Positions 18,691-58,690 of a stretch of DNA of 64,000 nucleotides are shown here, in pieces. Source of the DNA: Spirochaetota bacterium (GTDB lineage Bacteria; Spirochaetota; UBA4802; JAFGDQ01); assembly GCA_043803405.1 (NCBI GenBank), contig JAZDKB010000003.1, positions 56,143 to 120,142 of the forward strand, read 5' to 3'. The notes under the pieces were generated by a model that worked only from the letters and a program-made list of their open reading frames with translations, made no database searches and was not told where the DNA came from. The translations under genes were made by a program, and so were the position numbers. Numbering within the stretch: position 1 is the first letter of the stretch; each line of letters begins with the position of its first letter.

Positions 18691-20166
18691 CTATTTAAAA
18701 GCTTCCTTGAGTTCCTTATGCAAATCGTCCACATCCTTTTGCGTCCGCAATTGATATTTCTCAAGGACCGACTCTTCCAGATAATAATAATTGTATTTGC
18801 CTGATTCGAATTCGGCAAGCATGTTACCCAGGTACACAGGGAAAATAAACTCTTTGAATTTATCGTTAGCTTCAAGTGGCGAATGATGAAACTTAATTGC
18901 GTCTACCAGGTATTCCGGGAAATTCCACTTCTTTGCCATAAGCTCCCCTATTGTGGAGTGACTGATCCCGAGCGAGACCTCTTCCAGTATGGTAGACGTT
19001 CTTATTTTTCTGTCTTTTGTCAGGTCGGATATCCAGGCTGTAAATTTCGAATCAGCTGCCAAAAGTACAAGCTTCCCCAGGTCGTGGAGCAGTCCGCCCA
19101 GATACGCGAACTCGACAGTCTTTGACTTGCCGAATTTCTGAGCAATATACCTGGCATAGTCTGCTGTTTTTGTGCAGTGATTCCATATCTCTTTAAATTT
19201 TGTATATCTTTTTTCCAGAATGCTGCGCGTGCCTGTAACCAGAAGCAGGTCATGAAGGTTCGAAAATCCTATTATAAGCACAGCCTCGTTTATATGTTCA
19301 ACTCTTTTACCTAAAAAGAATCCTGCCGAATTGGCGAGCTTTAATATTTCGCTCGTTAGCGCCGGATCGGAAATTATCTTTCCTACTACCTGTTCTATTG
19401 TGGATTCGGGGTCCTTGCAAAGCCTTAATAATTCCACTATATTCTGGTTAAAGCTCGGAAGCCCGTCAACTTCGCTTATTATCTGCTTCTTGATCTGGGT
19501 TGTGATTACTTTAGGCTTTAATTCATAAGGTATTTCAAATTTTGCCTGCGTGGTTTTGCCGTCCGTTGATATGTTGAACGCGCTTTCTCCCATCCCTGTA
19601 TTTTTAAGAAGCAGGATTGAAAGCACAATACCCAGGCCTGCGCCCTCGGTCTCATCGTATATTTCCTCATAAGCCTCGGTAAAATCCTTATATTCCCTGG
19701 CTTTCTTCATCCTTATGTTTATCCTTTCCATTTCCACTGCATGTATGGGGACATTGTTCTCAACCATGACCTTAACCCCGTCATCCGTCATCGCAACAGA
19801 AAGGATTGCCCTGAAATCGGTACTTTCCAGCTCTTTTTCAATAGTATCTGTGCCTATTACCTCTTTCCTGAAGTTTTTAATCGCGTTCGAATATTTTTCC
19901 TGGTTATTGATATCCAGTTTAAGTTTTAAAAAATAATACCTTTTCGCATTTGCCTTTACCGCATTAGCGATTATCTCTCTTAATATGGTAACAACTGAAT
20001 CGAGGAGATAGATCATATCTATTTTGGCTAATACCTTGGAAAAAAAAGCGTCTATAGATTTTAGCAATGTTTCATTGTGAAAGGGAAACTTAATGCTGAC
20101 CGTCTTTTCTTTATCCAGCAGGGAGAGCAGGTCGCTCGGTTTAATGTTCTGCATGATACGCTCCAT
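18691..20166 (-). CDS. HATPase-like + HDOD domain signal transduction protein
   Basis: LREIIANAVKAN, EGAGLGI; DPALTSEILKLANSA, WNHC, GLLHDLGK, WNFPE...IKFHH. Confidence 0.9.
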   Translation of the reverse strand: MERIMQNIKPSDLLSLLDKEKTVSIKFPFHNETLLKSIDAFFSKVLAKIDMIYLLDSVVTILREIIANAVKANAKRYYFLKLKLDINNQEKYSNAIKNFRKEVIGTDTIEKELESTDFRAILSVAMTDDGVKVMVENNVPIHAVEMERINIRMKKAREYKDFTEAYEEIYDETEGAGLGIVLSILLLKNTGMGESAFNISTDGKTTQAKFEIPYELKPKVITTQIKKQIISEVDGLPSFNQNIVELLRLCKDPESTIEQVVGKIISDPALTSEILKLANSAGFFLGKRVEHINEAVLIIGFSNLHDLLLVTGTRSILEKRYTKFKEIWNHCTKTADYARYIAQKFGKSKTVEFAYLGGLLHDLGKLVLLAADSKFTAWISDLTKDRKIRTSTILEEVSLGISHSTIGELMAKKWNFPEYLVDAIKFHHSPLEANDKFKEFIFPVYLGNMLAEFESGKYNYYYLEESVLEKYQLRTQKDVDDLHKELKEAFK

Positions 20167-20264
20167 GACCGCAGTATGATAATAATTATATAAACAGTAT
20201 CTATATTATCGTCAATATTTATTTATTTACTTAACAATCTATTACCGGATTCTGAAATCTCAAT

Positions 20265-20519
20265 GAAACAGCATAAGAATCTAAGTGAGGTAGCGGTCGA
20301 GTGACTGTGAGACATTAACCGTAAGACAAAGGTTACGGACAAGGAAATCGTTTTCCTTATGCCGTACGTCGCGTACACAAAGGATATTTCGAGATAGGGA
20401 GCAAACTGGGCTCAAGCTCGATCAAGACAGGTAAAAGCCCGATTGTAGATGTGAAGTAAACTTAAGCTCAGGAGCGCTTTTCATGAGAAGAAGTATCTCG
20501 TAAGCGCTCCCTGAAAAAA
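20265..20519 (+). ncRNA. Candidate unidentified structured non-coding RNA (or non-coding end of a mobile element)
   Basis: About 45% GC over 20281-20520 versus about 15% over 20181-20240 (hand counts). No credible ORF, and at least 4 stem-loops. Confidence 0.45.
20494..20519 (+). repeat. 26-bp direct repeat, copy 1
   Basis: tatctcgtaagcgctccctgaaaaaa, identical to 23787-23812. Confidence 0.92.
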
Positions 20520-20752
20520 CAATGAAACCTGCCGCAGACTGCCCGGTCATCGCCAATTATATCCGGTAAACATTCCTGTTTAATAGACAAATAATAATAA
20601 TTCAAAAATAATGTTGACATCATTATAGAATATTTGTCAGAATGAACGATTTTCATAATTTTACCCTGCTATAGAAGTTAACTTATTAAATTCTGAAAGT
20701 CACTGCTTTAAAATATCCTTATCAAAATAACTTAATTACAACAGGAGGAGTT

Positions 20753-23044
20753 ATGAAAGACTGCTTTAAATTTTTGCGCGTTTTAATCATTTTCTTAATA
20801 ATGCTGGGCATGGTTTCCTGCGGAGGCGGAGGAGGAAGCAGCAGTCCCGGAATTACCGGAGACCCGCCAACGTCGCCCGGTTCTCTCGATACATCCTTTA
20901 ATCCCGGAGCAGGGCCAAATTCCCAGGGCAAAATATATTGCATGGCTATTCAAAGCGACGGCAAAATAATTATTGGCGGAGAATTTAATTACTACAGCAG
21001 CTATTCAAGAAACAATATCGCAAGGATCAATTCGGACGGCTCCCTCGATACAACCTTTGATCCTGGCACAGGCGCAGATGATGTTGTAAGAAGCCTTGCT
21101 ATCCAAAGTGACGGCCAAATTGTTACAGGAGGCAGGTTCATAACCTATAATGGTTCTTCACGAAGTCATATCGCAAGGCTCAACACTGACGGCTCACTTG
21201 ACTCTTCCTTTGATCCCGGCACAGGCACAGACACATATTCTTCTATCTATTCCATCGCGATTCAAAGCGACGGTAAAATTATTATTGGAGGGGCATTCAC
21301 AACCTATAACAGTTCTTCAAGAAGCTGTATCGCAAGGATCAATTCCAACGGTTCACTCGACACTTCCTTTGATCCGGGCACTGGCACAGGTACAAATTAT
21401 GCCGTTAAATCTATTGCAATTCAAAGCGACGGCAAAATTGTTATTGGCGGGGATTTCATAACCTATAATGGTACTTCAAGACACTATATCGCAAGGATCA
21501 ATTCCGACGGTTCCCTCGACACTTCCTTTGACCCTGGCACCGGAGTTGGTTGGGGTATTGTACTATGCGTAGCAATTCAATCCGACAGCAAAATTATTAT
21601 TGGAGGAACATTCGAAACTTATAACGGTTCTTCAAGAGACACAATTGCAAGGATCAATTCCGATGGTTCCCTCGACATTTCCTTTGCTCCAAGCATAGGC
21701 GCAGGTTATTATTTAAATGGTATTGCCATTCAAAACGACGGCAAAATTGTTATTTGCGAACAGTATTCATCCAATATTATCAGGATTAATACAGACGGTT
21801 CTACCGACAGCTTATTCAACCTTAACAAGCCTTCCTTTTATGAAAGTATGGATAGCGGTTTCTATTGTCTGGGGATTCAAAGCAACGGTAAAATTGTTAT
21901 CGGCGGTTTTTTGGAAAACGATTACGGCACTGCAATAAAAAGCATTATAAGGCTGGAATCAACCGGGTCACAGGATAATTCTTTTGCAGCTACTATCCCT
22001 CTTCAGAACGAAGTTCTATCATTAGCCTGCATGGCAATTCAAAGCGACGGCAAAATTATTGTTGGAGGAGAATTCTCGGGCTACAGCGGCATTGCCAAAA
22101 ATAATTTAGCAAGGATAAACACTGACGGTTCACTCGACTCTTCCTTTGATACGGGCACAGGCGCAAATTATTCCGTAAATTCCATTGCAATTCAAAGCGA
22201 CGGTAAAATCATTATAGGCGGGTACTTCACAGCCTATAACTCAACTGTCAGAAACCGTATTGCAAGAATCAACACTGATGGTTCACTCGACACTTCCTTT
22301 GATCCAGGTACAGGCGCGACTAATTACCTTAATTCCATTGCAATTCAAAGCGACGGCAAAATTCTTATTGGAGGCGGATTCACAGCTTATAACTCAACTG
22401 TCAGAAACCGTATTGCAAGGATAAACACTAACGGTTCAATCGACTCTTCCTTTAATCCCGGCACGGGTGCAAATAGTTCGGTAAGTTCCATTGCTATCCA
22501 AAGCGACGGTAAAATTCTTATTGGAGGCGGATTCACATCCTATAACTCAACTGTCAGAAACCATATTGCAAGGATCAACACTGACGGTTCACTCGACTCT
22601 TCCTTTGATCCCGACACGGGTGCAAATAGTTCGGTAAGTTCCATTGCTATCCAAAGCGACGGTAAAATTCTTATTGGAGGTGGATTCACAACTTATAACT
22701 CAACTGTCAGGAACCATATCACAAGGATAAACTCTGACGGTTCACTCGATACAACCTTTAATCCGGGTACAGGCGCAGGTGATAATGTAAAATGTATGTC
22801 AATTCAAAGCGACGGCAAAATTGTTATTGGAGGAGAATTCACAACTTATAACTCAACTGTCAGATGCCGTATCGCAAGGATCAATTCGGACGGCTCTCTG
22901 AACACAACCTTTGATCCTGGTACAGGCGCAGATGATGATATAGAGTGCATGTCAATTCAAAGCGACAGTAAAATCATTGTTGGCGGAGAATTTTCAAGCT
23001 ACAACGGCACTGCGCGAAACAACATCGCAAGGATCAATCCTTAG
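20753..23044 (+). CDS. Lipoprotein with 14 delta-60 (DUF5122-type) beta-propeller repeats
   Basis: AGGAGG RBS; lipobox MVSC + Gly linker; 14 copies of a ~51-aa unit SLDTSFDPGTGA..V.SIAIQSDGKIIIGG.FT.YN...R..IARIN.DG. Confidence 0.92.
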   Translation: MKDCFKFLRVLIIFLIMLGMVSCGGGGGSSSPGITGDPPTSPGSLDTSFNPGAGPNSQGKIYCMAIQSDGKIIIGGEFNYYSSYSRNNIARINSDGSLDTTFDPGTGADDVVRSLAIQSDGQIVTGGRFITYNGSSRSHIARLNTDGSLDSSFDPGTGTDTYSSIYSIAIQSDGKIIIGGAFTTYNSSSRSCIARINSNGSLDTSFDPGTGTGTNYAVKSIAIQSDGKIVIGGDFITYNGTSRHYIARINSDGSLDTSFDPGTGVGWGIVLCVAIQSDSKIIIGGTFETYNGSSRDTIARINSDGSLDISFAPSIGAGYYLNGIAIQNDGKIVICEQYSSNIIRINTDGSTDSLFNLNKPSFYESMDSGFYCLGIQSNGKIVIGGFLENDYGTAIKSIIRLESTGSQDNSFAATIPLQNEVLSLACMAIQSDGKIIVGGEFSGYSGIAKNNLARINTDGSLDSSFDTGTGANYSVNSIAIQSDGKIIIGGYFTAYNSTVRNRIARINTDGSLDTSFDPGTGATNYLNSIAIQSDGKILIGGGFTAYNSTVRNRIARINTNGSIDSSFNPGTGANSSVSSIAIQSDGKILIGGGFTSYNSTVRNHIARINTDGSLDSSFDPDTGANSSVSSIAIQSDGKILIGGGFTTYNSTVRNHITRINSDGSLDTTFNPGTGAGDNVKCMSIQSDGKIVIGGEFTTYNSTVRCRIARINSDGSLNTTFDPGTGADDDIECMSIQSDSKIIVGGEFSSYNGTARNNIARINP

Positions 23045-23132: not shown

Positions 23133-23307
23133 ATAAGCAGAAAAGACAGCAACAGGCCGACGATAACTCCCTTTCCTTCCGGCCTCCGGCTATATTCCAC
23201 TTAGCATTTACAACCGAAAGCTTAATACGAAAAAGGATATGCTATTTATATACGAATGAAAATTATACCGGCAATCAATACACTTATACTATTAACCAGA
23301 TGCAGAA

Positions 23308-23433
23308 GGCCAGCACGGATGCCGGCCGCGAGGCGTGGGACAGGATGTCCCTTACGCCGAGCAAGCCGGCCGCGGCGTTTGAGCGGCCGACCTTTCTTTT
23401 CGCCCTTTTCTTTGGGCGTACAAAGAAAAGGGC
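23308..23433. repeat. GC-rich four-hairpin intergenic element with GGA loops
   Basis: ggccagca-CGGA-tgccggcc; ggcgtgggaca-GGA-tgtcccttacgcc; cggccgc/gcggccg; perfect 13-bp gcccttttctttg/caaagaaaagggc. Confidence 0.8.
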
Positions 23434-23448
23434 AAGGGGGACTTTCAG

Positions 23449-23658
23449 TCAGTCAATCATCTTGCGCAGGGTATTTACATCATCTGAGAACACAAAGCTA
23501 TTATTTTTGTATTCCTCCTGGCACTCAGCATAACTATTGTAAATTTTATTTCTTTCCTCTTCAATAATTGCCTTTTCCAGTATATTCTTTATTTCAATCT
23601 TTTCAGTCAGTGATAAATTCCTGACATCATCTACCAGGTCATTGAATGTTGTTTGCAT
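23449..23658 (-). CDS. Small protein resembling antitoxins paired with RelE/YafQ-type toxins (orphan)
   Basis: 69 aa, AAGGA RBS; pattern FNDLVDDVRNLSLTEK.EI..ILEK.IIEE.R..IY...FSDD...L..MI recalled from toxin-antitoxin-linked proteins. Confidence 0.55.
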   Translation of the reverse strand: MQTTFNDLVDDVRNLSLTEKIEIKNILEKAIIEEERNKIYNSYAECQEEYKNNSFVFSDDVNTLRKMID

Positions 23659-23786: not shown

Positions 23787-23812
23787 TATCTCGTAAGCGC
23801 TCCCTGAAAAAA
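23787..23812 (+). repeat. 26-bp direct repeat, copy 2
   Basis: tatctcgtaagcgctccctgaaaaaa, identical to 20494-20519. Confidence 0.92.
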
Positions 23813-23971: not shown

Positions 23972-24964
23972 ATGAACAAAAAATGCGTGGCTTTATTATC
24001 CTCTATTCTTCTTTTTAGCGCCTTCACAGGCAACACCGCTTTCAGCGACGATACCATTAATCTTAAATCCGAAGGCAAAAAAGACACATACAAGTTCCCT
24101 CAGTTTTATAAAGGCATTTATCTTAATGTTTACTCAGCAAGGAATATGGACAGGCTTACAGGCTTTATGGAAAAAGCGAAAAAGAACAGGATCAATACAC
24201 TTGTGCTCGATGTACAGACAGGCAAAGCAGACACCTGCGCGGTTTCGCAGGAAATCGTTTCGCATTGCGTGAAGAACGGCTTTCATCCTGTTGCAAGGAT
24301 CGTTGTGTTCCCGGACGGGCTAAGCCACTACCCTGTAACCGAAGAGTTCATAAACGGCAAACTGAATATCGCAGAAGCAGCGTGCATTAACGGCTTTAAG
24401 GAAATTCAGTTCGATTATATAAGGTTCAGCGATATCCGCGTATCGAAGCGCCTTACGTTTGCTGAAAAATATGCTTTTATAGAAAGCTTCTTCCGTAAGG
24501 CAAGGGCGCGTGTTGAAAAATATAATACCAAAATAGCGGCAGACGTTTTCGGCAGGATCCCGCTGAATCAGGATGACGGCATAGGACAGAAGATGGAAGT
24601 ATTCGACAAGGTAGTGGATATAATATGCCCAATGGCATATCCGTCCCATTATACATGGAGCGCCAAGCTGATGGCAGACCCGTATCACACTGTATTCATC
24701 ACTTCCAAAAGCGCAAAAGAAAGAAGCAAAAAAGCGGAAATAGTGACATACATCCAGGCATTCCAGATGAAGGTCGGCAAATCGAATCTTACTTTCGACA
24801 AATACATAGAGGTACAGCTTAAAGCTGTTCACGATTCCGGAGTGCGGGGATACATTCTCTGGAACGCGTCACAGAATTACGATGTGGCGTTCAGGGTACT
24901 CGGCAAATACTACAGGGAAGCTCAGGAAGCGGCTAACCTGAACACAAAGGATAAGTCGTCGTAG
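23972..24964 (+). CDS. Putative glycoside hydrolase (DUF4015 family)
   Basis: KGIYL, ARIVVF.D, GFKEIQFDYIRF, AADVFG, PMAYPSHY, YIQAF, GYILWNA. Confidence 0.88.
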   Translation: MNKKCVALLSSILLFSAFTGNTAFSDDTINLKSEGKKDTYKFPQFYKGIYLNVYSARNMDRLTGFMEKAKKNRINTLVLDVQTGKADTCAVSQEIVSHCVKNGFHPVARIVVFPDGLSHYPVTEEFINGKLNIAEAACINGFKEIQFDYIRFSDIRVSKRLTFAEKYAFIESFFRKARARVEKYNTKIAADVFGRIPLNQDDGIGQKMEVFDKVVDIICPMAYPSHYTWSAKLMADPYHTVFITSKSAKERSKKAEIVTYIQAFQMKVGKSNLTFDKYIEVQLKAVHDSGVRGYILWNASQNYDVAFRVLGKYYREAQEAANLNTKDKSS

Positions 24965-27081: not shown

Positions 27082-27142
27082 TAGACCTGCTGCAAATCAT
27101 AAGTATCTCTTCAATCGAAATGACAGTTTTGCAACAAGTCTA
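27082..27142. mobile_element. MITE-like element, copy 1
   Basis: TIRs tagacctgctgcaaa / tttgcaacaagtcta bounded by TA; core contains gaaatgacag. Confidence 0.65.
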
Positions 27143-27232
27143 ATATATTTAATTTAAAATAATTAAGCTGGTGTTTTTGCAGTAACAATAATTCAATTTA
27201 TTTAAGCTGCCAGTTTTATATAACTTTTCAAT

Positions 27233-28137: not shown

Positions 28138-28187
28138 GCGTTTAATCCTTTTAAATAGAGTATAATTGCGTCCTGAAACCCGGTATA

Positions 28188-28241
28188 AATAATAGACTTG
28201 CTGCAAATCTAAAATGACAGGTTTGCAACAAGTCTATTATT
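28188..28241. mobile_element. MITE-like element, copy 2
   Basis: aataatagacttgctgcaaa / tttgcaacaagtctattatt (20 bp, 1 mismatch); core aaatgacag. Confidence 0.65.
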
Positions 28242-58491: not shown

Positions 58492-58524
58492 AATTTAAAA
58501 TTAGAATACGATTTTTTTTTTGCG

Positions 58525-58639
58525 AATTAGCTGGGATAATAATTATCAATTTAAAGGCGGCAAGGATGCCGCCGAACGCCGCTTCGACAGGATGTCGCAT
58601 GAGCGGCGAAAAAATTGATAATTATTATCCCAGCTAATT
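58525..58639. mobile_element. MITE-like element: 28-bp perfect IR enclosing two GGA-loop hairpins
   Basis: aattagctgggataataattatcaattt / aaattgataattattatcccagctaatt; inner ggcggca-AGGA-tgccgcc and cgccgct..cgaca-GGA-tgtcg..agcggcg. Confidence 0.75.
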
Positions 58640-58690
58640 TTAATATCTTAGGACGCATAGTTAATACCTTTATATATTACGGATACATTT

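Follow-up and report, generated by a model that had tools for sequence, protein, structure and literature searches.

The intergenic block at positions 20265-20519 of the window (the whole stretch of 64,000 nucleotides analysed, which belongs to contig C3; the genome, here G000, has 3.98 Mb, is 94% complete and by its gene content would be that of a spirochaete) is, on a slight balance of probability, a lineage-specific patchwork, assembled from remnants of mobile DNA and an att-like repeat at a rearranged intergenic junction prone to insertions, and not a conserved non-coding RNA (ncRNA) gene. As judged from sequence comparisons, its opening 65 nt represent a decayed copy of a small palindromic repeat found only in this genome, and its 3' hairpin contains 26 bp that recur at the distal end of a neighbouring islet of 3.3 kb. 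The block is located between two divergent genes, one encoding an HDOD/HD-domain protein (18691-20166, minus strand; Pfam HDOD, E 4.7e-50), which constitutes the left native flank, and the other encoding a DUF5122 lipoprotein (20753-23044, plus strand).

The proposal of a previous sequence-only reading that the block is a conserved ncRNA gene was not supported by the search for homologues, in which the block was not found by DNA search in two genomes of the same genus nor in four others of the same family. The same search, applied as a control to 6S RNA, recovered it in three of five family genomes with 78-85% identity and, as a consequence, a vertically inherited ncRNA gene is unlikely at this position. 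Against 40 relatives, blastn yielded just chance-level matches of 21-49 bp with E values of at least 0.01, in six of them, and among 400 genomes of the phylum (two candidates scored per genome) a single one gave a match, of 23 bp. No homologue of the block was detected in phages and plasmids. A covariance model built from the single sequence produced one match in 121 genomes of the order, located inside a 266-aa ORF, and none in five genomes of the family or in 149 of the phylum; covariance-model analysis of 33, 44 and 39 retrieved loci did not identify any homologue either. The loci retrieved with exact patterns from viral contigs (0, 44, 0, 0, 17 and 1), metagenomes (2) and species genomes (0 and 22) did not extend past the pattern in any case; these scans detect exact words only, and genomes outside the phylum were probed only in this way, which leaves room for a donor there. 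Finally, the literature found by text search, which works by words and not by sequence, does not name the element; this is no proof of its being undescribed, and unpublished or supplementary RNA-motif tables could bear on its novelty. Many multi-hairpin intergenic loci of bacteria are described as unannotated (bioRxiv 10.64898/2026.09.22.753630).

The absence of the hallmarks of known RNA classes, also pointed out previously, was corroborated. Rfam 15 gave no match at gathering (best E values of 1.7 and 2.1 in searches at E <= 10, far below the cut-offs), and the group II intron of the genome was recovered as a control at E 1.3e-8. ARAGORN found neither tRNA nor tmRNA in the block, and the tmRNA, the 6S RNA and the RNase P motif of this genome are on other contigs. 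An SRP RNA was ruled out, since no small-SRP model matched and no Ffh domain was found as partner in the genome; Ffh was not found in five of five relatives either, so that a missing SRP RNA does not explain the block. A fragment of a group II intron or a retron RNA was likewise rejected, because the only reverse transcriptase found in the genome is that of the group II intron of contig C9, and no alignment of the block with the domains of this intron rose above shuffles (the best, 9/200, was one of six comparisons). A TnpB guide RNA was also discarded, with no TnpB domain in three of three genomes.

Two observations made during these searches concern other loci. The intron of C9 (L166; G000 C9:276419-280045) is apparently complete and encodes a reverse transcriptase of 483 aa. 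In addition, the Ffh SRP domain was not found in any of the six genomes tried (G000 and its relatives G001, G002, G004, G007 and G011). Absence of SRP has been reported for Leptospira (PMC4758666), and a loss of this type may extend to the whole group formed by G000 and its relatives.

The beginning of the block matched a genome-private palindromic repeat with units of 11/22 nt, which we take to be REP/MITE-like. A profile built from its three other copies, all of them intergenic (G000 C36:79935-80077, C15:165346-165515 and C7:46820-46981), recognized positions 20255-20319 on the plus strand with an nhmmer E value of 0.00096, the best E value in the reversed-genome control being 2.5. With the windows overlapping the block set aside, the first 100 nt of the block ranked 1 of 7,633 intergenic windows, and windows from 20350 onward scored as background against this profile. 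None of 121 other genomes of the class contained the core pattern of the repeat, and no copy was detected in viral contigs or plasmids. The following ~140 nt (20320-20467) are orphan sequence, matched nowhere searched.

At the other end, the reported duplication of the 3' arm is exact: 26 of 26 nt are identical in two copies separated by 3,293 nt (20494-20519 and 23787-23812, both on the plus strand). The chance expectation of a 26-bp repeat within 20 kb is about 1e-6, and these two are the only exact copies in the whole genome. Copy 1 is attL-like and starts inside the loop of a hairpin; copy 2 is attR-like and is found without the 5' hairpin arm. This 5' edge is sharp, the upstream flanks of both copies being unrelated (925/1,000 shuffles were as good), and downstream of the copies there is a weak likeness (22 and 49 of 1,000 shuffles, uncorrected). 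A sharp 5' edge together with downstream likeness is the attL/attR pattern left by integrases that target tRNA or tmRNA 3' ends. The earlier suggestion that an ncRNA gene had served as integration target was supported in that the duplication is arranged like an integration identity block, and not supported as to a single conserved ncRNA gene. Throughout the genome there are 74 exact intergenic direct-repeat segments of at least 22 nt within 20 kb, the majority belonging to longer repeats; duplications that arise locally with no integrase are therefore not rare here, and a plain local duplication is possible.

The 3.3-kb islet delimited by the 26-bp repeats comprises the DUF5122 lipoprotein gene, a palindromic element and a lone antitoxin-like gene. 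The lipoprotein, a DUF5122/delta-60-repeat beta-propeller of 763 aa (Pfam PF17164, E 1.5e-190; TIGR02608) that would be the cargo of the islet, was not found in six of six family genomes and was present in 11 of 121 genomes of the order at E <= 1e-30. The promoter and leader of its gene were assigned from the sequence to 20555-20752 (plus strand), and a paralogue of this leader, in which the lipoprotein start is truncated, is found on contig C49. This paralogue (G000 C49:18850-19500) contains the promoter and the signal-peptide start followed by an early stop. The palindromic element (23306-23435) is dispersed, with 80-86% identity by blastn to three sites of C49 that sit among RHS-like cassettes; it is formed by two hairpins with loops of the A(C/A)GGAT type (TwoAYGGAY-like) plus an inverted-repeat end, and no significant Rfam family was obtained for it. 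A true Rfam match to TwoAYGGAY occurs elsewhere in the window, at 58520-58644. The antitoxin-like gene (23449-23658, minus strand) encodes 69 aa and gave a weak match to the VapB15 antitoxin (E 0.0034, below the cut-off). It was absent from six of six family genomes searched, and homologues were present in 4 of 121 genomes of the order. In these four genomes a second conserved gene, presumably a RelE-type partner, begins after it; this second gene is missing here. No integrase was found in the islet or in the scan of window ORFs, and the five tyrosine-recombinase genes of the genome are all elsewhere. An empty site with a single repeat copy was not found, and the searches gave no other genome or contig with the block.

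The gene order on both sides of the block differs from that of the relatives. Orthologues of the HDOD gene were identified in five of five family genomes tried (53-71% identity), and orthologues of the DUF4015 gene, which is the right native flank (23972-24964, plus strand; Pfam PF13200, E 4.5e-50), in three of five. The HDOD gene adjoins a MORN-repeat gene in two relatives (G001 and G002) and the DUF4015 gene adjoins dnaG in two (G001 and G006), whereas in this genome MORN and dnaG are adjacent on contig C19. Since one reciprocal event explains both new adjacencies, MORN-dnaG on C19 and the HDOD/DUF4015 interval here, we infer a reciprocal rearrangement, most simply an inversion, with the block interval as one of its breakpoints. 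Three further genera each show a neighbour of their own upstream of HDOD. Neither the block nor the 26-bp repeat has a copy at the reciprocal junction on C19. On this contig, several words of the leader upstream of dnaG are kept, by eye, in G000 and two relatives (G000 C19:126470-126570; L029 and L031), a possible cis-regulatory motif.

A −35-like hexamer at 20210-20215 (minus strand), read from the sequence, would belong to the HDOD gene's own promoter; the same word is present upstream of the HDOD orthologue in L020 and L021, and a variant of it in L019. As the HDOD gene keeps its own promoter word, which is placed outside the block, the block is probably not the leader of this gene and that candidate was discarded as unlikely. 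Elsewhere, the window contains three copies of a 29-nt repeat (27118-27146 and 28187-28241), which are possible operator sites; two of the copies are arranged as an inverted pair.

Taking these data together, a circular mobile DNA would have recombined into this site through the 26-bp identity block by means of an enzyme, probably a tyrosine recombinase, which either disappeared later or works in trans. Such an integration would have left attL (copy 1) and attR (copy 2), and later decay of the islet may have spared the lipoprotein gene, the dispersed palindrome and the lone antitoxin-like gene, in an interval that would also have been a breakpoint of the rearrangement. Several results argue for this patchwork: the lack of homologues where a vertically kept ncRNA such as 6S is found; the private repeat at the 5' part, with its core pattern in none of the other genomes of the class; the islet genes that are absent from the family, patchy in the order and, in the case of the antitoxin-like ORF, deprived of a partner; the repeat, sharply delimited at its 5' edge and followed by weak likeness, in a genome with five tyrosine-recombinase genes elsewhere; and the HDOD-MORN and DUF4015-dnaG neighbourhoods of the relatives vs. 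MORN-dnaG on C19. On the contrary, neither an empty site nor an integrase among the window ORFs scanned came to light, the abundance of local exact direct repeats makes duplication without integrase not rare, the middle 140 nt are unexplained, and the duplicated piece restores the 3' arm of the hairpin exactly, as elements do with functional-RNA targets.

Composition and folding were also studied. The sequence-only reading had presented the block as a GC-elevated island with several stems. The local rise in GC is real (0.443 vs. 0.18-0.20 just upstream), but it does not distinguish the block, as coding DNA reaches 0.406; genome-wide, 126 of the 810 intergenic regions of at least 255 nt contain a window as GC-rich. 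The stem words that had been quoted were all found in place when the sequence was checked. However, gggct/agccc, present in letters, was absent among the pairs with a probability >0.2, the ensemble preferring by pair probabilities GAGC/GCTC inside TCGAG/CTCGA, and the two alternative stems in 20319-66 were nearly equal (pair probabilities of 0.40 and 0.49).

The whole block folded with a z of −2.97 on the plus strand and −2.11 on the minus strand (−2.4 and −1.8, respectively, in a repeat run). Nearly all of this excess came from the hairpin at 20460-20519 (z −4.5, 0/200 shuffles as good); the first 196 nt (20265-20460) alone gave a z of −1.3, equalled by 20 of 200 shuffles. The hairpin itself is a strong interrupted one (20468-20514, plus strand) followed by an A run, and one G-U pair of the hairpin favours the plus strand; no U-tailed terminator was identified there on either strand, with 0 terminator-like sites in the terminator scan. 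Preceding it, a possible closed multi-hairpin domain was predicted at 20270-20468 (plus strand) with pair probabilities of 0.6-0.95, comprising a closing stem (20270-77/20461-68), hairpins at 20293-308, 20341-58 and 20389-421, and an interrupted helix (20365-80/20443-58). This domain showed no excess over shuffles (z −0.94; equally many confident pairs in 16/100 of them). Furthermore, of 203 GC-matched intergenic windows 103 were tested, and 37 of these had a z <= −2.4, a noisy figure obtained from the best strand with 12 shuffles each. A folding excess confined to one hairpin, of a size that is common among GC-rich intergenic windows, is consistent with the patchwork. Nevertheless, 200-nt parts of the tmRNA and of the RNase P RNA of the same genome scored only −0.5 to −1.5 (6S RNA, −5.8) and fold no better than the block, so that folding energy cannot exclude an RNA; a z of −0.9 to −1.3 without the 3' hairpin neither shows nor excludes one. 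The plus strand, with many confident predicted helices, G-U pairs and 60% purines, also speaks against the patchwork and, if a sense strand exists, the two latter features would make it the likelier one.

These last data would fit an accessory, horizontally acquired structured ncRNA (about 20270-20514, plus strand) whose 3' hairpin was the integration target and whose 3' arm was restored by the element, an explanation that we consider unlikely. The predicted closing stem, the several confident helices and the G-U pairs of the plus strand agree with it, as do the weak folding z, compatible with an RNA, and the 26-bp repeat that begins in the hairpin loop and restores the 3' arm. There is also a precedent for an att core of this size in an ncRNA gene, since phage phiEf11 is described as integrating in ffs with a core of 27 nt (PMC12540744). 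However, DNA, covariance-model and pattern searches did not give any homologue, the 5' end of such an RNA overlaps the dispersed repeat, the terminator scan was negative, and the only plus-strand sigma-70-like site listed upstream of 20265 (20153-20180) is inside the start of the HDOD gene.

Inspection of the block revealed, post hoc, that 20390-20402 (plus strand) is the reverse complement of two halves, of 7 nt each, of the 26-bp repeat with their order swapped, as they would lie at the junction of a small circle. The two 7-mers are at 20390 and 20396 on the plus strand and appear inverted in both copies of the 26-bp repeat. The hairpin, the half-copy located 3.3 kb away and the swapped copy could then be binding or crossover sites for a recombinase or a regulator, generated at the DNA level by successive recombination at the breakpoint, which seems decidedly improbable. 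The disposition of the 7-mers and the fact that the interval is a rearrangement junction are in favour of such sites, but the reciprocal junction of C19 is without these sequences and the swapped copy, besides having been found post hoc, had matches in 48 of 20,000 shuffles and in 41 of 2,671 GC-matched intergenic windows (about 1.5%). By eye, no attC or dif consensus was seen in the block.

That the block is decayed protein-coding DNA with hairpins arisen by chance is very unlikely. Its GC content is near that of coding DNA and two plus-strand frames have codon scores of 0.128 and 0.088 (coding mean, 0.117), but these frames contain 7 and 6 stops in 85 codons. The absence of a credible ORF was confirmed and no decayed protein gene could be recognized: none of the six frames gave a Pfam or PHROGs family, the 44-aa open stretch had 0 matches among 1.84 billion proteins, and two further frames had no protein relative in a word-based, weak search, which makes three of six frames compared with large protein collections. 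A protein-level relative was not found in the own genome either.

The swapped-order copy is the sole remaining thread for a novel system. It could be imagined that the block is a horizontally acquired, so far single-copy structured RNA which guides or gates the recombination of the neighbouring repeat-flanked cassette, with the enzyme acting in trans, and that the swapped-order complement inside the RNA serves for this purpose by matching the 26-bp site at the 3' end of the RNA itself; both ideas, taken jointly, are highly doubtful. The sequence-only reading had also contemplated a bridge or guide RNA, and this did not hold up, as no recombinase is adjacent and the block is unlike the IS110 loci of the genome (four of four). 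The guides of bridge RNAs are described as lying in two internal loops, the two sides of which pair with opposite strands of target and donor (PMC11208160). That the block is an orphan bridge or guide RNA which brings a recombinase, acting in trans, to the 26-bp site is highly improbable: both halves of the repeat have complements in the interior of the block, the predicted fold includes long helices with internal loops and IS110-family genes are present on C10 and C18, but besides the lack of likeness to the IS110 loci and of TnpB domains in the three genomes, no 8- or 9-mer guide match of the block to either junction was found, and the bases at 20390-20402 are contiguous, mostly paired in the prediction and matched by both 7-mers to one strand, unlike the guides as described in PMC11208160. 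As for the IS110-family recombinase genes themselves, they were located at G000 C10:3444-3878 and G001 C73:6270-6704 as 439-aa frames, in two genomes of the same genus, and C18 has two further matches.

Small decayed islets flanked by direct repeats are common, and as one of them this locus would matter little. If the block were transcribed, it would be an ncRNA outside Rfam at which integration takes place in an uncultured lineage, and the swapped copy of the repeat within it would be a hint of an RNA-directed choice of site; if the self-targeting idea were true, the integration site would be RNA-defined in a manner not previously described.

The block was also compared with the known systems closest to it. 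The bridge RNAs of IS110/IS1111 elements have a similar length (177 nt for IS621) and several stem-loops (PMC11208160), and the block is partly complementary to a nearby recombination-like site; however, it has no adjacent recombinase, no likeness to the flanks of the resident IS110 elements and no two-sided guide loops, and the core of bridge-RNA systems is of 2 nt, in contrast with the 26-bp repeat of the block (PMC11208160). Housekeeping ncRNAs (tmRNA, 6S, RNase P and SRP RNA) resemble it in the intergenic position, the GC content above that of the surroundings and the size of 200-250 nt, but the tmRNA, the 6S RNA and the RNase P motif are located elsewhere and the block is not conserved in the genus. 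With respect to REP/MITE-like repeats, no terminal inverted repeats, target duplication or mobilising enzyme were identified and only a quarter of the block is involved, whereas those 65 nt at the 5' end do match three intergenic copies found only in this genome. Finally, the islets inserted at the 3' ends of RNA genes (tRNA, tmRNA and SRP RNA) differ in that the target here is no known or conserved RNA gene and in that this islet is of only 3.3 kb, lacks an integrase and has no empty site seen, but they share with it the exact direct repeats of ~26 bp around foreign-looking genes and a duplicated part that corresponds to the 3' arm of a hairpin and has a sharp 5' edge.
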